Shown: positions 30,731 to 56,183 of the stretch, piece after piece
Position numbering within the stretch: the stretch's first letter is position 1
Layout of the letters: each line of letters starts with the position of its first letter
Virus record (IMG/VR): IMGVR_UViG_3300005289_000004
Location: 11,641-75,640 of that record
Source of the DNA: a virus
Reading direction: 5' to 3' (one strand)
DNA: 64,000 nt
Program-made: the position numbers and the translations under genes
The notes under the pieces: generated by a model
Told to the model about the DNA's origin: nothing
The model's database searches: none
What the model saw: the letters and a program-made list of their open reading frames with translations, nothing else

Positions 30731-31042
30731 CTATTTAATTTGTTTTCCTTCAACATTACGTTTCACTCTATCAGCAGTTCTTTTATTTAACCACATAAGA
30801 GACTCTTCCAATTTGGTTATTACCAATGCGTTCTCTCTACACGGAAACTTAGATTGCAAATAGTTCATCCTTGCAATAAGGACTTCTAAAACCTCCTCAT
30901 TAGTTGTACCATCACTTACAGTCATCAACTCAACCGAACCCTCTTCTTTTGGTTCTTTTTGAATAAACTGGATTGTCTGTCCGTTCCTTGACTCTTCAAA
31001 GTTTGAAGCAACGTACCTGTGTCCTTCTACTAGTTCTTGCAT
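30731..31042 (-). CDS. tad1: Tad1/Acb2-family anti-defence sponge protein
   Basis: FPCRENALVITKLEESLMWLNKRTADRVKRNVEG matches the Tad1 helical hairpin motif RENA.A.T..EEALMW.N.R..DR..RNV.G. Confidence 0.75.
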   Translation of the reverse strand: MQELVEGHRYVASNFEESRNGQTIQFIQKEPKEEGSVELMTVSDGTTNEEVLEVLIARMNYLQSKFPCRENALVITKLEESLMWLNKRTADRVKRNVEGKQIK

Positions 31043-31365: not shown

Positions 31366-31549
31366 CTTCTTTAATGTTTAACTTAACAATTCAAATATAC
31401 GACTACTATATGACATTACCAAATTTATTTTTATAAAGGGATAGCTTTACTTTTTCGTATAGGATGTTAAGTTATAACTGTACTTGTGTCACCCTGTTAA
31501 AATAGGTATACTATTTCTGTATATATTTGCAATTGTAAAAGTAAAGTAG

Positions 31550-31557
31550 TACCTTTG
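31550..31557 (+). promoter_or_regulatory. Bacteroidota -7 promoter element TACCTTTG
   Basis: Matches TAnnTTTG with an upstream TTTG -33 element. Confidence 0.7.
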
Positions 31558-31560
31558 CAT

Positions 31561-32055
31561 GTATAAGTAGTTGTTATATCAGGAGTGTAACATACCGCAG
31601 CTTAAAAGATATTAGAAAGGCCGATAAGTCGTCAAATAGGAACTCCTGATTCCTGATGTACTTTGAAGCCTTTTCTGTTTTAAATATTTTATTTAAGCTG
31701 TTGTATGTAGTCGTTGAACAGCTTGGGATATAAGAAGCCCTTAAACAAAAACAACCGTTAAGAAAATAGGCTAAGAAATAAAGAGTTAGCAATGCTTACG
31801 CCAGCAACTAACGACCTGAATGACAGAAATGTTCAAACACTTAGACCGCCATTGAGAATAAGATTTAGCTTTGATTGAGATTTACGAGCTATTTGGGAGG
31901 GGTGATGGGTAGTTTTCTTATAGATTGTAACCTTTAGAACTTAGATCAGCTATAATGCTAGATTATTAATAAGGGTTAACTCAGGAAGGTTGGGATCAAG
32001 TATCTCTACATTCAGGGGTATAAGGCGGGAACTGTCTAATCAGCAACTAACGATC
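31561..32055 (+). ncRNA. Candidate large structured ncRNA with 5' kissing-loop module
   Basis: No credible ORF; loops ATCAGGAGT and ACTCCTGAT are complementary; several long-range complementary segments. Confidence 0.55.
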
Positions 32056-32066
32056 ATATATAGGTT

Positions 32067-32285
32067 ATGTCAAGAAGTTATAAAAAGAGTGCAGTAATAA
32101 AAGATGGTGGGCATGAAGGTAAGAAACGCTTCAACCAAAACTTTAGGAGTAAAAATAAAATACACATAAGGTTAGGTCTTGAACCCAAGTTGCCCAATGA
32201 AGTAGAAAATCAATACAATTTATGTGATTGGGGGTGCAGGTTTGAGAAGAGTCATCCCGACTATAAAGTAAGAAAAAGAAAATAA
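32067..32285 (+). CDS. Small basic protein
   Basis: MSRSYKK..., K/R-rich, directly after the candidate ncRNA. Confidence 0.65.
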   Translation: MSRSYKKSAVIKDGGHEGKKRFNQNFRSKNKIHIRLGLEPKLPNEVENQYNLCDWGCRFEKSHPDYKVRKRK

Positions 32286-32341: not shown

Positions 32342-32797
32342 ATGGAAGACCTAAGAATTAGAGAGCTTGACTTTTTCAAGCACAGAACAATCACTTATAT
32401 GTGTAAAGCAAGAGTGGGTGAAATGGTAATATTTAATAATGAGATGGTTCACGAATCGGAATGTGAAAGAGTCACGGAACCCTTCAAGCTTTCGTATAAT
32501 CTTATGAAGTCAGGCGCTCAATTAATATCAACAGAGAGGCGTGAACAAATGTCTAAGCACAAATACAATGATTCTAACGATGACGAGTACGTAAACGGAG
32601 AGTTGAAACAGGCTGCAATATATGCCTTAACGTGTAATGATGATGTAGTTTCCAATTACCCTAAGGACTGGCATCCTATTTTTGGTGATAAATGTGCTAC
32701 CAAAGATGAGATAGGATTATTGACTGTAGCTGGAGCTTTAATTGCGGCTGAAATAGACAGAATTAGAAGGCTGGAAGAAAAGGAAAACAATTTTTAA
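32342..32797 (+). CDS. Conserved phage hypothetical protein
   Basis: ER..Q...DD....GEL..AA.YA..AGALIAAEIDR motif. Confidence 0.65.
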   Translation: MEDLRIRELDFFKHRTITYMCKARVGEMVIFNNEMVHESECERVTEPFKLSYNLMKSGAQLISTERREQMSKHKYNDSNDDEYVNGELKQAAIYALTCNDDVVSNYPKDWHPIFGDKCATKDEIGLLTVAGALIAAEIDRIRRLEEKENNF

Positions 32798-39121: not shown

Positions 39122-39223
39122 TATCTTTGTGCTGTTACAGTATCTCAATTTAAGTAACAGTAAGAAATTTAACACCCATTGCACCTAAAAGTGAGTTGAG
39201 ATACACTGGCGGGAGTAGTGGGT
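39122..39223 (+). promoter_or_regulatory. Promoter plus kissing-loop RNA leader
   Basis: TATCTTTG followed by two hairpins whose loops TATCTCAATT / AGTTGAGATA are complementary. Confidence 0.6.
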
Positions 39224-39233
39224 TTATTATTTT

Positions 39234-40163
39234 ATGACACGCTCAGAAGAAATTTTAAATGGGTTCAACGAAACTCATAACTACAAATACACCTATCCTA
39301 ATTACGGTGCTAAGAACCTTCAAGAAAAAGTTACAATCGTCTGTCCTGAACACGGAGAGTTTGTTAAGTTCGGATATTGCCATTTGAGAAGAAAGCAAGG
39401 ATGCCCCAAGTGTTCGCACATTGGTTTGTCAAGGTATACAGAAGAGGAGTTCATGGATAGCCTAATTAAAACTCACGGTTATCCGTTACCTTTTGAAATT
39501 TTGTCTCCGTATGTGGGTAATAAGGATGACATTATGATTAAGGATAAGTATGGTATTTGCAAAACTAAACCCTATAACCTTACACGAACCTCTTATGGTT
39601 CCTTACGAACTGCCGTAGATAAAACTGCGTACATGATTGCCAAGTTTAATGAAAAACACAACTTCAAATACACTTACGACAATTTTGTGTACAAAGGTAA
39701 TAGGGTACTAGGTACAGTCACTTGCCCTGAGCATGGGGATTTTGAACAGTTGGTGGATGTACACTTAATGGGTTGTGGATGCCCTAAATGTGCAGACTCT
39801 AATAAGGTAAGCGGCTACGGGAGAAATGATTACATAAGGGTTTGTAAAGAAAGGGAGGCAAGTTTATACATCATATGCTGTTACAGCGAGGATGAGTTCT
39901 TTGTTAAAGTGGGTATTACATCTACAGGAGTGAATAAAAGATTTAGAGACAGAAGTGCGATGCCCTATGAATTTTCTTCATTATTTGAAACTATAGGTGA
40001 TCCTGCTGAAATTTGGGATTTAGAACTGAGCTTGAAAAGAAAATATAAAGGCAATACATACCTGCCACAAGTTTATTTCAAAGGACAGACAGAATGCTTT
40101 ACTTTTGAGACAGCAGAAAAAATGATTGAAGAAATTAAAAATAAATTTGTAAATGCGACATAG
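39234..40163 (+). CDS. Homing endonuclease with CPxHG zinc-ribbon repeats and C-terminal GIY-YIG-like domain
   Basis: Two CPEHGxF..H..G.GCPKC repeats; LYII..FVKVGIT..RF..E..GQTECF. Confidence 0.8.
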   Translation: MTRSEEILNGFNETHNYKYTYPNYGAKNLQEKVTIVCPEHGEFVKFGYCHLRRKQGCPKCSHIGLSRYTEEEFMDSLIKTHGYPLPFEILSPYVGNKDDIMIKDKYGICKTKPYNLTRTSYGSLRTAVDKTAYMIAKFNEKHNFKYTYDNFVYKGNRVLGTVTCPEHGDFEQLVDVHLMGCGCPKCADSNKVSGYGRNDYIRVCKEREASLYIICCYSEDEFFVKVGITSTGVNKRFRDRSAMPYEFSSLFETIGDPAEIWDLELSLKRKYKGNTYLPQVYFKGQTECFTFETAEKMIEEIKNKFVNAT

Positions 40164-40420
40164 ACAAGTTACATTTGATAAACACAACATCCAAAACAAT
40201 TGAAAATGGATAAAATAATAACCAACATGAAATACACACGATACGAAATACAAGAACGCAAGCATAGCTCGAATGTAGTCTTAGGAATATACGAGATTTT
40301 TAACAATCACAAAGGTGAATACGAAGAGCATTCTCAGATTATAGCTATACCTGTTGAACGTAAAGCAGAAGGAGATAAGTTAGCGATATTAATTTGCGAT
40401 ATGTTAAATGGTCAGTTGAA

Positions 40421-41353
40421 ATGAATTACCTAGATACCCAGATTCAATATTACGAAAACGATATACGCAAAACCAAGCCCATCGGAGTTTGTACACTAGG
40501 GCAGTTATTAGCCAGCATACGTAACCCTAAACAGGAAGTCTTAGAAAGGTTCAAGGAGATTGCTAAAGCCAGTTCAGACGGAGATAAGAAGTTGAAAGAC
40601 GAACTTAAATCTAAACTGTGGTATTTTACACCTTGTATATACAGCAAAGGAAACAACAGAACCTACGAAGACATAGATCACTGGACAGCTGTTATGGTTT
40701 TAGATTTTGATAATCTGGAACAAGAGTTAGCGGTTGAATTAAGAGATTGGCTGTTTGAAAATTATTCCTGTGTTGTAGCTAGTATGTTATCTAGTTCCCG
40801 TAAGGGTGTTAAATGTTTTGTGAGGATTCCAGAGGTTATCAGTGTGGAAGAGTTTAAACTGTATTTTTATGGGATAGCTTCTGAGATGCAGTATATTGTC
40901 GGGTTCGACCATACTACTCAAAATAGCGCATTGGCTTTCTACCTCACCTACGACTATGACATAAAGGTTCGGGAAGACGCAACTGAATGGACACAGACAG
41001 GTTATAAGCTAGACGAGTTTAAGCAGTGGGAAGGTGGAGAGATTATACCAATTGACGATGTAACAGAACAAGACAGGGAAGAAATAATAAAACAGCTAAC
41101 CTGTATGTACGCAAATATAACTGATAATGGGCATATTCCAAATCGAAGCGCAGGACTCCTCATGGGGGGTTATATCGGTTCGGGGTACTTTACTTATGAC
41201 GAAGCAGTTGACATACTAGATGAGCTAATTGACAATACAAGCTATCTACAAGCTAAACCAAGAACGTACAAGACCACTACACGACAGATGTTAAAAATTG
41301 GCAGTAAGTCCCCCCTATACCTAACCCGACACGAACACTTATATGAAGCCTAA
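40421..41353 (+). CDS. VirE N-terminal/BT4734-like (primase-fold) protein
   Basis: LKSKLWYFTPC..R..VMVLDFD..SSSRKGVK pattern plus a helical C-terminal domain. Confidence 0.65.
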   Translation: MNYLDTQIQYYENDIRKTKPIGVCTLGQLLASIRNPKQEVLERFKEIAKASSDGDKKLKDELKSKLWYFTPCIYSKGNNRTYEDIDHWTAVMVLDFDNLEQELAVELRDWLFENYSCVVASMLSSSRKGVKCFVRIPEVISVEEFKLYFYGIASEMQYIVGFDHTTQNSALAFYLTYDYDIKVREDATEWTQTGYKLDEFKQWEGGEIIPIDDVTEQDREEIIKQLTCMYANITDNGHIPNRSAGLLMGGYIGSGYFTYDEAVDILDELIDNTSYLQAKPRTYKTTTRQMLKIGSKSPLYLTRHEHLYEA

Positions 41354-47143: not shown

Positions 47144-47602
47144 TTATTCGTTCTCACCTTGCAGTTTGATTAACAATGCTAATCCATCAGTCTTTAATAC
47201 TTGCGCTCTAGTCTTTCTATCTCCTTTCCAAAATACATGCGGATTGATCGTATAGTTCCCAAAGCTACCAGTAATTAAACCTTTCTTAATAAGGCTCTTT
47301 ATATTCTTACTGATGTTGGTCAACCCTATATTCAACTCTTTACATATCTCTATACGTGATGCTGTGGTTAGCTGTACAACTCCTGTATTGTACTCAGCTA
47401 CTTCGCAGAACTTTACCAATAACTTTAAGTCGGATAGCTTAGTAAGTCCGTACAATGAACTGATAAACTTTGTGTACGTCATAAAGAACTCCTCTGTTTC
47501 TATCTTAACATTAAACTGTTTGGTTGTTTCGATCAACCTTACTTCTCCTGTTTCGTAATCTACTGTTTCTGTGGTCTGTGATTGTGTTGTGAACTTTGCC
47601 AT
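47144..47602 (-). CDS. repL: RepL-like replication initiator (HTH)
   Basis: VDYETGEV N-terminus, HTH (ICKELNIGLTNISKNIKSLIKKGLI), YTINPHVFWKGD. Confidence 0.75.
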   Translation of the reverse strand: MAKFTTQSQTTETVDYETGEVRLIETTKQFNVKIETEEFFMTYTKFISSLYGLTKLSDLKLLVKFCEVAEYNTGVVQLTTASRIEICKELNIGLTNISKNIKSLIKKGLITGSFGNYTINPHVFWKGDRKTRAQVLKTDGLALLIKLQGENE

Positions 47603-47633
47603 AATGCTTTGCTAATTTATTTAGTAACAAAGA

Positions 47634-47756
47634 TACTACTAAATAGTACGTGTATTTACTAAGGGTTAGTAAGCGGTTTACTATTCTCTAGTATTTAAAT
47701 ACTAATAATTCGGTGTAGAATACTAATCTCTAGTACTACGTTACTAATGGGTATCA
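47634..47756. repeat. Iteron-like array TACTA-N5-TAGTA
   Basis: Copies start at 47634, 47657, 47679, 47700, 47721, 47742 (four perfect palindromes, two half-degenerate), period 21-23 bp. Confidence 0.8.
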
Positions 47757-48821
47757 TTCATTTAGTTGTAATACAGGCAGTTATAAAACCTCTCTATCTT
47801 ATCTAATTAGGTATTATTTATTAATGCTAGGTTGTTGGTTCACTTTTCTGAACCTGTTGAAATCCTTACTGTACACTAAGCTACTAACAGTTTCTTTTAT
47901 TCATGCGGTGTAGCATACGTACTCACGATAGTTTAAATGCGGTTTATGAAAAGCTGTGAAGAGGTCAGTTTTAGCTAGTAATTTACACTAAGTAGGGTAT
48001 TTTAGCTGTTTTATAGTGGGATTTGGGGAAATTTGATGTGTAATGTGTGCATGAGAGACGAATAGTGCCTTTGTCCTTATCTCCCTTATCACTATTTGAA
48101 GCTATCCTAATCTATTGTATTACCTATTTAAACCCCCACATCGTCACTTTGTCCATGCATTTGTCTATGCTCCCACTTTAAACCGTCCTCTTTACCTATC
48201 TGTATTCATGCTGGCTGTCTTACTTACGTATGTTAGGCTTATCCCCTTTTATTCTCTGGTTAGCTTAGCACGTGTAATTATAGAAGATTCGTTCTAATTT
48301 CGGGATTATAGTCTGTTTGTTCTATATTATGTTGAGGTGTACTATTCAGCTAGTACAGTTAGTAGTCATTCTGTTTAAACATGTAATCATTTGGTTACCT
48401 ATTCCTTAACTGTTATGTTGTATACATAGGTTATTACTATTATCAGTTGGTTAGCTTATAAGGTGCAATGTTATTCGGTTAGCTATTCACTTAAAATTAT
48501 TATCTCTCATTTTCAGACAGTTACATTTTATTTGAAAATATTTATTGCTATTTGTTTGGTTTGCCTAATAATCCTTTGTATGTTTGTTATGTCGTTAGTG
48601 ATTAACGCAATCAGATAGGCAACTGTAAAGGTCATTCCGCAAAGCTAGGGTAATAATATAGCATAAGGTAAAGCATACCGACTGTACAAATGCATCTTCG
48701 TGTAATGTAGCTTAGTTAACTAATATGGTTAGCTGATCAGTTCAAAGCCTGAGAAAGTAATTACAGTTTTGTAATGAACAAATACAGATGACACAAACAG
48801 AAACTTTTAAACTTAAATATT

Positions 48822-51800
48822 ATGAGAGAATTAACAGTAACACAACAGTCTTTTAACAGTATGTTATTAGGCTTGATACAATCAGGTGTAACATTTGAAG
48901 CTACTGAACAACCAAACGGTACAATATTAATCACATTCACAGGAGGGTATTAAAATGCAAGACAAATGGTTTTTATACGCACTCGTTGCTATGGGTGTTA
49001 TAGCTTTAATAATATTATCCACACTTTAAATTATACAGTTATGAATACACTGGAATTTTTATCTAAGGCAGAATCGATGTACTTAGACTACGTTAACAAC
49101 TTCATTACACTTGAAGGATTTGCAAGTCACTACGCAATTAGTATCGGGTTAGCTATTGAACTAATAAACTTTGGCAGAGTAGTATTTGAATCAAGTGAAT
49201 ACGAACGTAACACAGACCTTTAATTTTAAAACTATGAATACTCAAATTGAATTTACCCGCATTAACAACGACACAAACGGCAATCCTAGGTATGTGTGTC
49301 ACTTCTTAAATCTGTTAAATAGTAAAGAGCAGGTTGTAATAGCTGCTAAAGCTAAACCATTTCAATCTATACCTGATATGTACAGGGAGGCAGTTAACAA
49401 AGCACGTGCAATAGGTGGTAAGAAATTCCACAACAAACAATACGGAGGTGGTATAGTATTTCAGTCTTACAGCATTCAACAAACAGAGAAAGATATTTTA
49501 AACCTTGTAAATAGCTAGAAAATGGAAGTAGTTTATATAGCAACCTACAAAAAAGATAACGGATATATCAACACTGTACAGTTTGCAGACTTCAATGAAA
49601 TGGTTGAATACCTAGAGACGTACAGAGACTGTAAAGTAATAATAACCACTATTTACATTTAACAATTACAAACATGAAAACTACAGCAATACAACAACAG
49701 TTAATTAACCATCTTGAAGCAGGATTTTTAGTTAGCAAAAAAGAACAAGATAATTTGTTCAAAATACTAAACGGCTCTAACACTGAACTAATAGACAAAT
49801 TAAAAGAACTGTTAAATGAAAGTGAGGGTATTAGTTTATCTGATGAACATAGCAATCAGGGCAAAGACTGGCTTTTAAATCTTTGGAAGTCACTAACAGG
49901 TAAAGAGCGTAAAAACAATCCATTTGGGTACAGAGAGCAGGAAATATTGACAGATTTTAGTCACTGCGAATTGGCAGGTTATTATAACGGTGGTAATAGG
50001 TATATGAACTACTACATTCCTTTGTATGACGTTGTAAGTAATGACGGCAGTAGTTTTCAATACTACATGCAAGGTGGTGAAATTAGTATAGTAGGGTAAC
50101 ATACCAAAACAAATAGAAAGTGTCTAAAATCGGCTAATAATAACCTTAAATCAAAGAATATGAAAACTAAAGAACAAAAAATAGCAGAACTATATAGTAA
50201 CATTGAATTGAACTATAAATTAATAGATGCTATTGTTGACTTGCAAGATGCGGGTTTTGGTAGTAGTGCATTATCACTAGCTCAAGACGAGGCAAATATG
50301 AGAGTTTCAATTAATCAAGAATGCTTAAAAGAACACGAATAACAATCCCTTCCCTGTCTACAGATTTAAATAGCTTGTAACTATTCAGGGAACTAAACTT
50401 AAACAAAATAACATCATGTATTTAACAGAAAAACAAATCAATAGAGTTGCTATAGTGGGTAGCTTTATTATAATCTCTCTAGTAGTATACGCCTTAACAA
50501 AAGGTAATGTGTCTAATCTTTCAACTATAGGATATTAGGTTATGACAAACAGCCAATTTACTATTACCTTAGCATTAGGTCTCTTGCTAGGTATTCTAAT
50601 AACAGTATTAACTTATTCATTATTTAATGTATGAAAACATTAACATTAAACCCTAAAAACTATAAGGTAGGTGATACCATTAAGTTTAGTACAATTACTA
50701 GGTCAGGAAAAGAGACTGTTAAACGGAAGATTGTTTCTATTGATAGCTTTGGTTTAGGTGTAAGATACAACGGTTGGAATCCCTATTACTTAAATAACCC
50801 GATGTTAGATAAAATTATTGAACATATAAAATTATAATTGTTATGAAAACAAACAACAAGAAAGAGGTGATAGCTACGGCCATAGCGTTTGTAGTTATCA
50901 TGAACATGTGTATAGGGTTTACAATAGTAATAGCCCTAACTGATGTGTACACAGTAGAATGCTGGTTAGCTTTGGTATTCAGTGTAGGTATTCTTATACT
51001 GGTAGGTCTTAAACTGGTAGCTGATATGGTAGAATATGAAATAAATAAACAACTTGAATTATAATTGGTAAATTCAAAAGGAGAATTAACTATGAAAAAG
51101 AAAACAATTATACTACAGCTACTGACTGTAGATTTTGAGAATCCTAATTATGGCAGCAATTGTGACTGTCCTGTAGGTAAAGCATGTGCTAGGCAATTAG
51201 GGCTTAACAGGGACGATATTATAGAGTGTGTTGATTGGGTTTATCTAGGTTACGATTTAGACCGATACGACCACGAAGTTTACGGTTTAGATAAGTTTAA
51301 TGCAGACGTTAAGCTAGCCGAACAAAAAGAACCAAACACAGTAATTAGAACACTTACCTTAACTAAAGCATAACATGTATTTACAAACAGAAATACCGAC
51401 ACGTGGTAGCTGGGTAGCTTGGTTAGCCACGATGATAGTTGGAGAGGTTAAAGTAGCTGACCCAAAAGACAGGAATAGAATAGCCACAAGTATTAGCAGT
51501 GCTTTTCATAAAAAGAAGCTGGCTAGGTTTACTATTAAAATTAACAAAAACGACCGTTCAGAATTACATATTACGAGAATCGCATGAGACTGCCTGAAAT
51601 GGTTGCATTAGCGCAACAAGGGGTAAAAATGACCCATAGATATTTTAGTGAAAATGAGTGGTTAGTTATGCAGGGCAACTTAGTTGTGTTTGAAGATGGA
51701 GTTAAGATATTCCTGTCTGAATGGATAACTAATAAAGAGTGGTTAAACGATGGTTGGTCTAAATTTGAAGAGTTATGAAAAGTGTAAATTTCAAAGTAGT

Positions 51801-53838
51801 TAACAGTGACGGTTTATTTGACAAAGGAGAAGTGTTAGCAATCATAGTGCAGCCTTCCGAACAACTCGAAGCTTACCAGCTATTTAAAAAAGACAGTAAA
51901 GTGTTATCTAAGCAGTTTATCAGAACCAATACAAGGAATGCTAAACCAAAGGAGATCATATCGTTAGCTTCTCACTTAACTAAATTAGGAATACAGTATA
52001 AACAAATTAACAGTTTGAAGGGATGAAAAACATTGATACTACAAAACCAAATTGGTTTACAAAAGAGGTTAAAGAGTCTTGGTTAGCTGACCTTAAATCT
52101 GGCAAGTTTATACAAGGGTACGGAGCTTTAAGATATGAAAAAACCTACTGTTGTCTTGGGGTACTTTGTGTAACATTAGATAAAGAATACGAGTTAATCA
52201 GTGAATGTGGTATGAGTAATGGGGATAGCATCTATAACTTACTAGGCCGGGAAATAGGCGACATGAGGGTAGATCATCTGTTTAGGGCTAATGACAGGGA
52301 CTATAACAATAAACACCACAAACATGACTACTCAAACGTAATACCATTAATTGAACAGTTACCTACTAAAGATTAAGTTATGAAAGACGAGAAATTTAAC
52401 CAACTAGTGCTACACATTAATATTCTTATGGGTATATATGCGGAGAGGGAAAAGACCAAAGCGGAATTTAACAGTTACGGAGAAGCGCACGAATGTTTAA
52501 TTAAAAGATCAGTGTTAGAGAATTTACTTATAGAGGCAACTAAAATCAGCAAAGATGAAAAAGTTTAAATCATACTGTCTCCAAACTTTGGATAAAAGTA
52601 ATGGTGGCTATCAACACAGAATGCAAAATAAAACGTTATATCTGGCTAAGGGAGGTGTTGAACTTAAATTAGATGGGCATGAGATTAAAGAATTACTACA
52701 AACGCTTGGTGTTACAGGCGATTTTTGGAATGGATTTAAAGATTAAGTTATGAAACGGTATAGAATAATAAACAGGCTCTATAAAACACTGCTCTTCTTA
52801 TTGCTAACTGTTATACCTCTTACTATGTATCATTTAGACGGTGGTATGAGTAGCTGGTATCCGATATACTATCATTTAATTTGTGGGGCTACGATTAGCT
52901 TGGCATACGATCTACCCTTGTTCCTTAAAAGAAAAATAACAGGGTTATGAGTATAGATAATATGTGTAGCGTAGTCGAGGACTATATTTACAAAAGAAAG
53001 AACGTAAGAGTAACAATCAACAGAGGTTCAATTAATAACTATGCACACTTTCAAATGTTATAAATGGCGTATGAAGTTGCAATAAACTACAAAGACAATG
53101 GCTACTAAAGAATCAGTTATCGCAAATTTGACTAAAGCTACGTATTCGGCAAAAGAAGTCCTGCATTTAATTAGTACTGTTACATTAGACCCTATAAAAC
53201 CGCCCTTTATTATTAAAGGAGATTGTTATTTTGACAGAATTGGGGCTAAGAAAAGACCGTTCTGTGTTATTAAGGTTGTCAGTGATTTAGCTTATGCTAT
53301 ACCGCTTACTACAACTGATAATCAAATGGTGCTGTGTGAAGGTAAGATGCCTAGGTTTGCCCCTAATTACGGGTTAGCTAAGTCTTATTTTGCAAGATCA
53401 GTGGTTGCTGTCCCTATTAATGTGGTGCAAGAGAACTACATGTTTAACTATGAGAATAACGCAGCTATTAACAAAGCTATCCGAGAAATGCGAAAATTAA
53501 TGTGGCAAGTGCTTGGATAATAGAAAACTAACATTTATATTTACAAAATGAAGTACTTAGAATTTTATAGGTTAAGACATAAACCAACAGGTCTTTATTA
53601 CAAACCTAAACGAAAGAGTTGGGACGGTAACCTTTCAAGAAAAGGTAAAGTGTATACCGTAAAGCCTAGTTTAAACCACGTTGGTCTTTGGGTTGATCTG
53701 CCTACAAGCTATGCACCTAATCAAGCAGTCGTTAAAACTGTTATTGAATGTATGGGTGCAGATGCTGTTAAAGAGCGGTATGGTAGACGGTATATTGATT
53801 GCACACAAGAAGATTGGGAAATAACAAAAGAAAATTAA
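48822..53838 (+). CDS. Early gene region: about 20 small hypothetical genes
   Basis: Follows ~1 kb non-coding DNA and a TATGTTTG promoter near 48580; short ORFs with A-rich initiation regions. Confidence 0.55.
51584..51778 (+). CDS. Possible Tad2/DUF2829-like small protein
   Basis: E...A.QG.K..H.YF..W and terminal D.W pattern; weak resemblance only. Confidence 0.3.
   Translation: MRLPEMVALAQQGVKMTHRYFSENEWLVMQGNLVVFEDGVKIFLSEWITNKEWLNDGWSKFEEL
53098..53520 (+). CDS. PemK/MazF-fold protein
   Basis: KGD....KKRPFCVI....AIPLTT matches the PemK/MazF signature. Confidence 0.5.
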   Translation: MATKESVIANLTKATYSAKEVLHLISTVTLDPIKPPFIIKGDCYFDRIGAKKRPFCVIKVVSDLAYAIPLTTTDNQMVLCEGKMPRFAPNYGLAKSYFARSVVAVPINVVQENYMFNYENNAAINKAIREMRKLMWQVLG

Positions 53839-53844
53839 AACATT

Positions 53845-55035
53845 ATGAAAAAAGAATTAAAAGGGTTAGAACAACCCAAAACAGTTGTGCATTGTGACAC
53901 AGAAGAAAAAGCTAACCAAGTACTTAAAATTGCTACAGAGGCTGGCTATGATGGTTTCAGTGATGGTGTTAAGTATTCGGAGGATAACAAGTATGAGCGC
54001 TACAAAGAGAACACATGTTATCAAATTAAACAAGGGTGGTACTCAGGTTTAAACTTTTACACAAGTGAAGGTTACAAGATAATCACAGCAGAAGAATTTA
54101 TTAAAGCTAACCCAACAGTAAAGCTACCCTCCAAAGAAGATGTATACGTAGTACTTGACACACCGGAAAAAGTAAGACAGTTTTATAGTGTTCTTGTACA
54201 GGCAAATGAACCTATATATTATACCTCTAAAGAACGTTGGAGTAAAGGTGAGGTTGACAGTGAATATGATTATTCAAAATATAGTGGTGGTGAATGGAAT
54301 GGGCTTGGAATAAAAAGTGGAACAGAAGTATCAGTAGAACAATTAGCAGAAATATTAAACGTAAAGGTCGTGGAAACAAATTATCGGTTTAAGGTAGGTG
54401 ACAGAGTTAGCACAGCTCATGGAATAGGTACAATCGTAGCTATAACTGACCATCAAAGTCAAAAATACATAGTAGCGAACGACCAAACATTCTTGCAAGG
54501 GCACAACTGTTACAGCAATTCGAATATAATTGACGGTAGCAAGGACGGTTTAAACAGTAACGGTTGGTTTTATAAAGAAAATGAAATGGAATTAGTTAAG
54601 ACAGAAACTCAAACTAAATCGTCCGAGAAAACTCAAACTATCATCCCTAACCGTAAAGTATCACGTGAAGCTCTGGCTGTTATTTACCCACAAGTTTGTT
54701 CAGGATGGCAAGCTAATATTACCAGTCTGTTAGCTAAGACCAGTGCATTTAGCAATGAGGTTGAAGTATCTGAGGATATGGTTAAGACAGCTTATAATGA
54801 GGCTAACGACACGCAAAGAAAATGGCTGAACCTACACTTACCTGCACCTAAAAAGATTGAAACAGTTGAGGTTGTTAAGTGGGCTGTTCTTGACTTAGAA
54901 GATTTAATCATAGGCTCTTATGCAACTGAAAAATTAGCAAGAGGAGCTGCTGGCGGTAATACTGTTGTTGAACTTAAAGGTAGCTACACCGTAGAAGTAG
55001 AAGATGAAGAGTACAGTTTTGAGTTGCCCTTCTGA
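53845..55035 (+). CDS. Multi-domain hypothetical protein with acidic ELPF tail
   Basis: Two related N-terminal domains (VHCDTEEK / VVLDTPEK), SH3-like FKVGDRV segment, C-terminal EDEEYSFELPF. Confidence 0.6.
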   Translation: MKKELKGLEQPKTVVHCDTEEKANQVLKIATEAGYDGFSDGVKYSEDNKYERYKENTCYQIKQGWYSGLNFYTSEGYKIITAEEFIKANPTVKLPSKEDVYVVLDTPEKVRQFYSVLVQANEPIYYTSKERWSKGEVDSEYDYSKYSGGEWNGLGIKSGTEVSVEQLAEILNVKVVETNYRFKVGDRVSTAHGIGTIVAITDHQSQKYIVANDQTFLQGHNCYSNSNIIDGSKDGLNSNGWFYKENEMELVKTETQTKSSEKTQTIIPNRKVSREALAVIYPQVCSGWQANITSLLAKTSAFSNEVEVSEDMVKTAYNEANDTQRKWLNLHLPAPKKIETVEVVKWAVLDLEDLIIGSYATEKLARGAAGGNTVVELKGSYTVEVEDEEYSFELPF

Positions 55036-55060
55036 TAAAACAAACAGCAGTCTTGTCTCG

Positions 55061-55095
55061 AACCGTTATCTCTTAATTGGGGTAGCGGTTTTGTT
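55061..55095 (+). terminator. Rho-independent terminator of the early operon
   Basis: AACCGTTATCTC/GGGGTAGCGGTT stem then T-rich tail. Confidence 0.7.
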
Positions 55096-55099
55096 GTTT

Positions 55100-55600
55100 A
55101 AGCATTATTAACTTTAAAGAAACTGGTAATTTTGACTATAATCAACTGTCCTATAGTGCTATACAACTATCATCTAAACAGGGATTCTTAACCACTCAGC
55201 ATAAATAGAACTGGTAATAGCACACTCGCTAGAAAATGCAACTTGGTAGTTAAGATAAAAGGTAAAAGGTTAGTCTTCGACCCCTCCTGTAAATTATTGT
55301 ATTTGATATCGCCAGTCACTTTTATGGCATTGCTTCCTAAATTAATAGCTTGGGGAATCCGAATTTACAAGGACAACGGTTGGGTACGTTTCAGCGATAA
55401 CTATACAGAAGCTATGTATCTGATCCAATATACGTGTGAAGTATAAAGTGTGGATGCTTGAATGCTTAGACTCAAAACAAAAGCAACAGCCCCCGTATGT
55501 AAGAGTGCAACGTCTTTACGGATAAATAGTGGGGGCAGGAATATTGCTTTGAATATCTTTTATTATTTATCTAACGTTGCAATACAAAGGTGCAACAAAG
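55100..55600 (-). ncRNA. Second candidate large structured ncRNA with kissing-loop module
   Basis: TATATTTG promoter at 55632-55639 (minus); loops TGCAACGT/ACGTTGCA; linker TAAAAGATATT identical to the 31.6 kb copy; no credible ORF. Confidence 0.5.
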
Positions 55601-55672
55601 ATTTAATATATTTTGACTAGGCTTAATGGGACAAATATACAAATAATTCTTATATTTACAAAAAGAAAAGTT

Positions 55673-56068
55673 ATGCCTAAAATATGTAAGCTATGCACTT
55701 ACCCCGTATTCTCAAAAGGACTGTGTGTAAGGCACGATAGGGAGAGAAGAGCAGTAGAGTCCCAGAAGAGTCCGAAAGTGGCTAGAAACGCCCCAAAACG
55801 ATCTCAAATAAAGAAGAAGTTTCCTAAACCTACCGGAGAAAAGTCCTTGTTTCTTGAGATATGGAATGAAAGACCTCACATCTGTGTTAATTGTAAGACT
55901 CACTTAGGAGATGAACCGTTAGCACACTACTTTAGTCACATTAAACCGAAAGGTCTGTACCCTGAATTACGGTTGGATAAATCTAACGTAGAAATTTTGT
56001 GTATACCATGCCATACTGCATATGGAACACAGTCAAAAGAAAAGTACGAGGCTAGGGCTAGGTTGTAA
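55673..56068 (+). CDS. HNH/NinG-like nuclease
   Basis: CVNC..FSHIKPKG.YPELRLD..N..LCIPCH. Confidence 0.75.
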   Translation: MPKICKLCTYPVFSKGLCVRHDRERRAVESQKSPKVARNAPKRSQIKKKFPKPTGEKSLFLEIWNERPHICVNCKTHLGDEPLAHYFSHIKPKGLYPELRLDKSNVEILCIPCHTAYGTQSKEKYEARARL

Positions 56069-56126
56069 ACTAGAAAATGAACAATAAACTTAACTAGTTT
56101 AGTATGCAATATCAGGTTTAGTAAAT

Positions 56127-56160
56127 AAAAAAGGTGAGCTAACATTTCTGCTAACCCACC
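56127..56160 (-). terminator. Rho-independent terminator
   Basis: GGTGGGTTAGCA-GAAA-TGTTAGCTCACC followed by T6 on the minus strand. Confidence 0.8.
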
Positions 56161-56183
56161 CAATCACGGGGATGATTTAATGT

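Follow-up and report, generated by a model that had tools for sequence, protein, structure and literature searches.

In phage lambda, short non-coding RNAs arise where a strong promoter has a terminator hairpin no more than ~150 nt downstream, as in the PR'-6S RNA-tR' unit and in oop RNA, and the element proposed here is built alike. The homing endonuclease genes of T-even phages (I-TevI, I-TevII, I-TevIII, segB, mobE, and segF) carry hairpins, terminators, and promoter-overlapping sites, and elements of the same kinds are packed beside the free-standing HNH gene studied here (PMC2988022). The mobE and segF genes have 5' terminators, several of the endonuclease genes have regulatory hairpins, and the T4 intron endonucleases repress their own promoters via operators that resemble their homing sites (PMC2988022). 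On a larger scale, the GOLLD and ROOL RNAs (Rfam; PMC12286853) likewise occupy ORF-free stretches of several hundred nucleotides in phage genomes.

The locus considered here is a 637-nt gap (55036-55672) between two phage genes. Structure prediction and motif analysis suggest that only its right-hand ~160 nt, referred to below as the head, has the anatomy of an RNA element, and that this element would be read from the minus strand.

The phage and the gene map around the gap

The window is the whole stretch of DNA that was analyzed, 64,000 nt in length, and comprises bases 11641-75640 of an IMG/VR virus record of 75,640 bp, which has direct terminal repeats and is rated complete. The phage encodes a family A DNA polymerase (PolA; at most 56% identity to its nearest cultured relatives), a Rad52/Erf-type annealing protein (SSAP), and a YqaJ-type exonuclease. 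Its gene starts have A-rich leaders without a Shine-Dalgarno sequence, and complete TTTG-N19-21-TAnnTTTG promoters are present at intergenic positions. A-rich leaders of this kind, together with TTTG/TAnnTTTG promoters, are the Bacteroidota pattern (PMC7366714, which is also the source of the promoter consensus used here), and the phage appears to be an uncultured one of 75.6 kb that uses Bacteroidota-type promoters.

Searches of a phage database, IMG/VR, JGI metagenomes, and GTDB genomes revealed no relative above ~53% protein identity. The phage database gave zero DNA matches; in IMG/VR, the SSAP query gave at most 50% identity, the PolA query 53%, and the 396-aa protein encoded upstream of the gap no match, a three-protein alignment of the latter recovering domain-only matches. 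JGI metagenomes returned matches to the N-terminal domain only, and GTDB genomes returned none. The protein P0002 (53% identity) is encoded on a 34-kb contig. BLAST and nhmmer searches with both this gap and the gap at 31.6 kb gave no matches in any of the loci retrieved, nor in the regions upstream of HNH relatives.

Some genes elsewhere in the window were recorded in passing. A 110-aa protein (49186-49518, +) matches Phage_TreK (PF24229, E 9e-24), which is unexpected alongside Bacteroidota-type signals because the family is named after Staphylococcus phage terminal-repeat proteins. A 103-aa protein (30731-31042, -) matches the Acb2/Tad1 hairpin domain (PF24729, 28.8 bits, cut-off 27) and phrog_2428, and is a candidate sponge for cyclic-nucleotide defense signals. 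A RepL-like winged-helix protein (PF05732, E 2e-6) is encoded at 47144-47602 on the minus strand, within a plus-strand block, and its gene adjoins a 1.36-kb stretch (47603-48965) that has no ORF of at least 80 aa and contains a complete promoter at 48579-86.

The gap is flanked on the left by the gene for the 396-aa protein, whose terminator forms the left edge of the spacer (plus-strand windows there give z -2.2 to -3.2), and on the right by a free-standing HNH endonuclease gene (55673-56068, +), of which the ATG at 55673 is the likely start. The HNH product matches Pfam PF01844 (22.8 bits, cut-off 21.4) and phrog_144 (E 4e-15), and its gene, with a coding score of +1.3 bits per 100 nt, is convergent with the minus-strand recombination operon. 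This gene had been overlooked in a sequence-only reading of the region; since it is on the plus strand, the gap is flanked by plus-strand genes on both sides and immediately precedes a selfish nuclease gene. The minus-strand ORFs at 55712-55903 and 55936-56163 match no family, score negatively for coding, whether strongly or mildly, and are spurious shadows of the HNH gene. Because a terminator ends the recombination operon at its SSAP gene (Table 1), the operon is not expected to read through into the spacer.

The 34 nt before the HNH start (55634-55667, +) resemble the 27-nt spacer before the gene at 53548 (53519-53552, +; 79% identity), both consisting of TTATATTTAC followed by an A-rich run. 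TTATATTA-like boxes also precede the genes at 32342 and 34684, and the TTATATTTAC/TTATATTA boxes may be a common start-region signal of plus-strand genes.

The gap itself is probably non-coding. When scored with a coding model that had been trained on the long genes of the phage, all ORFs of the gap came out negative, the best at -0.9 bits per 100 nt; real genes, both small and large, score about +5 to +12 bits per 100 nt in the same model. Pfam and PHROG searches assigned no family to any frame of the gap, minus-strand stop-to-stop frames included. The minus strand has zero ATG-initiated ORFs of at least 20 codons; its longest ORF (43 aa, GTG start) scores -9.9 per 100 nt, and no gene follows the head on the same strand. 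ARAGORN reported neither a tRNA nor a tmRNA, and there are no iterons in the gap. The plus-strand ORF at 55192-55446 was considered as a gene and rejected: it has no Pfam, PHROG, or phage tblastn match, and among 1.84 billion representative proteins it gave three multi-stretch, repeat-like matches at 30% identity, none of which is a credible homologue. Recoding (TAG as Q or TGA as W) opened no long frame in the gap.

Table 1. Coordinates of the features in and around the gap
Feature	Position	Strand	Description
Intrinsic terminator of the upstream 396-aa gene	55060..55091	+	13-bp stem, 6-nt loop, T tract
ORF-free body	55100..55465		No coding, structure, or 31.6-kb similarity signal
Long imperfect hairpin	55466..55554	-	AAAGCAA/TTGCTTT foot; GCCCCC/GGGGGC clamp; apex ACGTTGCA (S1, 55506-13); U-rich tail UGUUGCUUUUGUUUUG
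11-mer TAAAAGATATT	55552..55562	-	Identical to 31603-13; in the A-rich linker/5' foot of the long hairpin at both loci
Small hairpin GUUGCA(C)-N9-UGCAAC(G)	55574..55596	-	7 bp; -9 kcal/mol with outer pairs
Complete Bacteroidota-type promoter	55632..55662	-	TTTG (55659-62), 19-nt spacer, TATATTTG (55632-39)
Canonical intrinsic terminator ending the recombination operon (SSAP)	56132..56161	-	From terminator scan

Comparison with the locus at 31.6 kb

The sequence-only reading had placed a ~540-nt minus-strand non-coding RNA at 55100-55640, interpreted as a diverged paralogue of an element at 31.6 kb (here copy 1, the present locus being copy 2) with a kissing-loop head and a conserved, structured body. 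The 15 sequence words to which it pointed are all where, and on the strand on which, it had placed them. Both loci are long ORF-free stretches after a host-type promoter, and over the whole regions they share 22 8-mers (~12 ± 5 in controls, 3-5% tail) and a collinear 8-mer chain of 7 (3.6 ± 1.1, reached by 0-5 of 400-500 controls). The collinearity is rough: the step from TATATTTG to the 11-mer measures 81 nt at 31.6 kb and 77 nt at the present locus, and the three that follow are 149/180, 144/95, and 32/15 nt.

Division of the two regions into heads and bodies locates this signal. Between the bodies (31615-32120 vs 55040-55550), shared 6-mers number 99 compared with 98 in controls and shared 7-mers 27 compared with 27.6, which is no excess over random genome windows. 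The 8-mer chain of the bodies (5 vs 2.6 ± 1.1), which contains the three body words said to run in the same order at both loci, was reached by 21 of 400 controls, such that the order of these words is near chance. Between the heads, 45 6-mers are shared (25 ± 6.5 expected, 1/400 shuffles) together with a 7-mer chain of 5 (2.5 expected, 10/400), the 8-mers not being significant, and the common words are the promoter box, ACCTTTG, and the A-rich 11-mer. The word-sharing signal between the two loci thus lies entirely in the head. The 11-mer is identical at the two loci, as claimed, but it is not distinctive: a shared word of at least 11 nt occurs in 16-19% of control window pairs, and with at most one mismatch the 11-mer has 7 matches vs 5.6 expected. 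Copy 1, too, has a long hairpin with a U-rich stretch after it, and the 11-mer again falls within the A-rich 5' foot; there is therefore a functional reason for similar A/U-rich words at this position.

Searches for a more general relationship were negative. Local alignment of 31500-32120 with the reverse complement of 55040-55660 gave a score of 25 (22.7 ± 2.7 for dinucleotide shuffles, 46 of 200 of which reach it), and nhmmer and sensitive self-BLAST searches of both gaps against the whole genome returned only self-matches and short AT-rich matches upstream of other plus-strand genes. A covariance model of the copy 1 head, employing the two-hairpin structure proposed in the earlier reading with filters off, and of limited reach as a single-sequence model, scored 190 bits on itself; neither copy 2 nor an element at 39.1 kb (copy 3) was among its 13 matches at E ≤ 10. 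None of these methods links the loci as a paralogous RNA family. Because the 31.6-kb and 55-kb loci cannot be aligned, the differences between their complementary sequences, which had been described as natural covariation, cannot be claimed as such, and the likeness of the two loci is at most one of shared design.

Nor does the body show the structure expected of a large RNA. The helices proposed within it have no stability beyond that of shuffles: the 586-nt fold gives z -0.59 on the minus strand and -0.05 on the plus strand (copy 1, z +0.15), and minus-strand 100-nt windows across 55100-55460 are mostly above 0, with one at -2.0. Rfam, with GOLLD, ROOL, and the Bacteroidota sRNAs among its families, gave nothing at gathering score in the window and nothing at E ≤ 10 in 54900-55900, and the terminator scan found no minus-strand terminator near 55100. 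Unlike GOLLD and ROOL, the gap has no Rfam match at E ≤ 10, no excess folding energy, and no conserved body. The similarity tests appear largely to have refuted a large-RNA paralogue already, and we regard it as very improbable; there is no evidence for a family of large non-coding RNAs in this phage. From the proposal of a second RNA copy, the minus-strand orientation and the ~160-nt head are retained, and its length of ~540 nt and its paralogy are not. In practical terms the outcome is negative: no large-ncRNA family emerges, and the local gene map is corrected by the addition of the HNH gene and the removal of two minus-strand ORFs.

Promoter, hairpins, and complementary sites of the head

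The proposed promoter word of the head is present and has TTTG upstream at the spacing given in Table 1. The window contains 109 TAnnTTTG boxes, only 10 of which, including 55632-62, have TTTG at 17-23 nt, and five of these 10 are intergenic; from base frequencies, ~0.04 complete promoters would be expected in the gap. The upstream edge of the promoter lies 11 nt from the HNH start codon, which is on the opposite strand. The complete promoters at 31392, 40170, and 48579 are not followed by twin hairpins. Two of them, at 31392-31399 (-) and 40170-40177 (+), share nearly the same upstream text (AATAAATTTG...TA.ATTTGA) and are probably a co-regulated pair.

The small hairpin lies ~30 nt downstream of the likely transcription start. 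Its TGCAACGT segment (55574-81) had been described as a loop, but has no credible enclosing stem and, in the predicted fold, is the 3' arm of the 7-bp hairpin, opposite GTTGCA at 55590-95; the first complementary site is accordingly paired (UGCAACG with UGUUGCA) rather than exposed in a 5' hairpin loop. As the supposed first loop is a stem arm, the arrangement is one of three sites, S3, S2, and S1. The long hairpin with its named arms is borne out by folding: its 5' end is at 55554 and its 3' end at 55470 (dG -23.0), and the minus strand of 55466-55565 folds at -23.6 kcal/mol with z -2.7, a value matched by 2 of 200 shuffles, although the 150-nt head as a whole reaches only z -1.6. Compared with a canonical terminator it has a 6-bp GC clamp, an interior of 36 nt, and 11 U among the 16 nt of its tail, and was not called by the consensus terminator scan; the predicted structure is terminator-like but probably non-canonical. 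The apex sequence ACGTTGCA was confirmed as the exact complement of TGCAACGT. S2 (55574-81, UGCAACGU) is predicted to pair with S3 (55591-96) at -7.6 kcal/mol or, alternatively, with the apical S1 of the long hairpin at -10.2 kcal/mol. TGCAAC/GTTGCA occurs in 33 copies in the genome, and the only triple cluster within 100 nt is that in the head (0.03 expected). A host-type promoter lies directly upstream, the second hairpin is terminator-like and complementary at its apex to the first site, and the parts are laid out as in the heads at 31550 and 39122.

The complementarity between apex and upstream site carries little weight on its own. When the 21-nt apex of the long hairpin is compared with the 71-nt leader, the 8-mer complement has p 0.013 by shuffling, and the same test gives p 0.0016 for copy 1 and p 0.0014 for copy 3, making copy 2 the weakest of the three elements. 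Among 1045 stable single hairpins genome-wide, 12 have an apex-to-upstream complement of at least 8 nt vs 13 after shuffling, so the design is not enriched genome-wide; such hairpins account for 4/110 outside ORFs vs 8/935 inside (4-fold, Fisher p 0.03), and examples at 40709 and 56506, both within genes, are just as good. A looser loop-loop census, which counted 8-nt inverted repeats at distances of 25-100 nt whose two arms each had 4-5-bp flanking stems, gave 1, 37, 8, and 17 in the real genome vs 5.6, 58, 14, and 24 in Markov-random sequence, that is, fewer.

These counts bear on whether the head consists of chance features, a promoter match, a hairpin, and repeats without function, in spacer DNA that the HNH cassette left behind on insertion and that is now decaying. 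By chance, about 12 hairpins per genome have an 8-nt apex complement, such architectures are not enriched over random sequence, and the phage has several other large ORF-poor gaps. We nevertheless judge a chance origin rather unlikely, given the coincidence of a promoter (~0.04 expected), a hairpin of z -2.7, and a three-site cluster (0.03 expected), and the recurrence of the same order of parts at two other loci.

Near the 39.1-kb element, a 309-aa protein encoded just after PolA (39234-40163, +) has a DUF723 match and zinc-ribbon hints and is probably another selfish nuclease-type gene product. The 104-nt leader before it (39130-39233) folds into two clean hairpins (z -3.6) with loops complementary over 11 bp, including one G-U pair.

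The three TGCAAC(GT) sites might also act as DNA, as protein sites in a back-to-back promoter region, used for HNH autorepression or by another regulator, with the hairpin serving as a two-way terminator or insulator and with no functional minus-strand RNA. The uniqueness of the site cluster in the genome, the position of the GTTGCA-N9-TGCAAC palindrome adjoining the promoter boxes, and the T-rich runs flanking the hairpin on both strands are consistent with such a role, for which autorepression by T4 intron endonucleases is a precedent (PMC2988022). A pattern scan of IMG/VR with the three sites returned four high-GC (56-64%) viral contigs (L097:660-910, L098, L099, and L100:11920-12150), which are unrelated and were rejected as relatives. 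They carry dense AACGTTGCA arrays, made up of (A)ACGTTGCA and TGCAACGT(T) in both orientations, with at least 10 copies in ~200 nt in L097; the arrays look like iterons or operators of a DNA-binding protein, and this resemblance to protein sites again fits a DNA-level role. However, the half-sites in the head are 15 bp apart, center to center, and hence lie on opposite faces of the helix, and S1, exactly at the hairpin apex, stands alone as a half-site at a distance of 60 bp. The 31.6-kb and 39.1-kb sites are spelled differently and would therefore need other proteins, and no DNA-binding domain was found in the neighboring genes. Overall we consider a purely DNA-level function credible but unlikely.

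Structure alone does not fix the strand, because TGCAACGT/ACGTTGCA can also fold on the plus strand, into another hairpin with z -3.45. This 78-nt hairpin, in plus-strand window 55510-55609, has TGCAACGT/ACGTTGCA as the base of its stem and 16 further pairs, including 6 G-U, can form on the plus strand only, and has the best z score in the gap. The HNH gene shares this strand and lies 92 nt downstream from the sites, and the hairpins could be a structured 5' leader or an upstream terminator limiting read-through or HNH expression, as in the T-even cassettes, where the 5' terminators of mobE and segF provide a precedent (PMC2988022). Yet there is no complete plus-strand promoter upstream of the hairpins, the terminator at 55060-91 already stops the upstream gene, and the hairpins leave the HNH start region untouched; moreover, the U tract of the plus strand, which begins 8 nt past the GC clamp, is weaker than that on the minus strand, and the 150-nt plus-strand fold has z -0.33. 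A plus-strand role is, in our estimation, improbable, and the minus strand is favored by its complete promoter, its better U tract, and the order in which the parts occur.

A proposed short RNA and its relation to known systems

The explanation that we tentatively prefer, while placing it slightly short of an even chance, is that the head specifies a short, promoter-proximal, terminated minus-strand RNA with two alternative folds; its transcription, termination, and switching are inferred from the promoter match and predicted structures. Transcription would start near 55625 from the host-type promoter, and the small hairpin (S3:S2) would be the first to form in the RNA. The A-rich linker would follow, and then the long hairpin running into the U-rich tract near 55470, where most transcripts would stop. 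S2 would switch between two partners, S3 within the small hairpin and the apical site S1 of the long one. The design would be the same as that of the heads at 31550 and 39122, here without a downstream gene, and the product may be a small RNA in its own right, or a leader that remained when its cassette was lost or rearranged. Because the minus-strand promoter abuts the HNH start, it may also curb HNH expression, possibly via polymerase occupancy.

A further proposal, which we consider possible but doubtful, is that Bacteroidota phages carry a class of promoter-proximal leader RNAs that has not been catalogued, and that the ~160-nt head is a functional member. In such a class, the apex of a terminator-like hairpin would pair with an upstream site, each copy having its own 'address'; the present head would be a three-site variant (S3/S2/S1) that functions as a stand-alone small RNA beside a selfish HNH gene. 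If the RNA is real, it would be a case of an undescribed Bacteroidota-phage design, in which a promoter is followed by two hairpins with pairing exposed parts. The twin-hairpin design might then gate transcription beside selfish nuclease genes, and copy 2 would be unusual within it in having three sites and no downstream gene.

Unlike the lambda 6S and oop units, the head has no evident antiterminator (a Q- or N-like gene) or target gene, and its terminator-like hairpin is long and imperfect. To our knowledge, the three-site complementarity has no counterpart in lambda. The T-even elements are on the endonuclease gene's own strand, where they sequester its ribosome-binding site, or are inside the 5' coding region (PMC2988022). 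In contrast, the best promoter and terminator at the present locus are on the strand opposite the HNH gene and point away from it, and the HNH start region is left unpaired. By analogy, the purpose shared with the T-even elements is presumably the tight control of a selfish nuclease.
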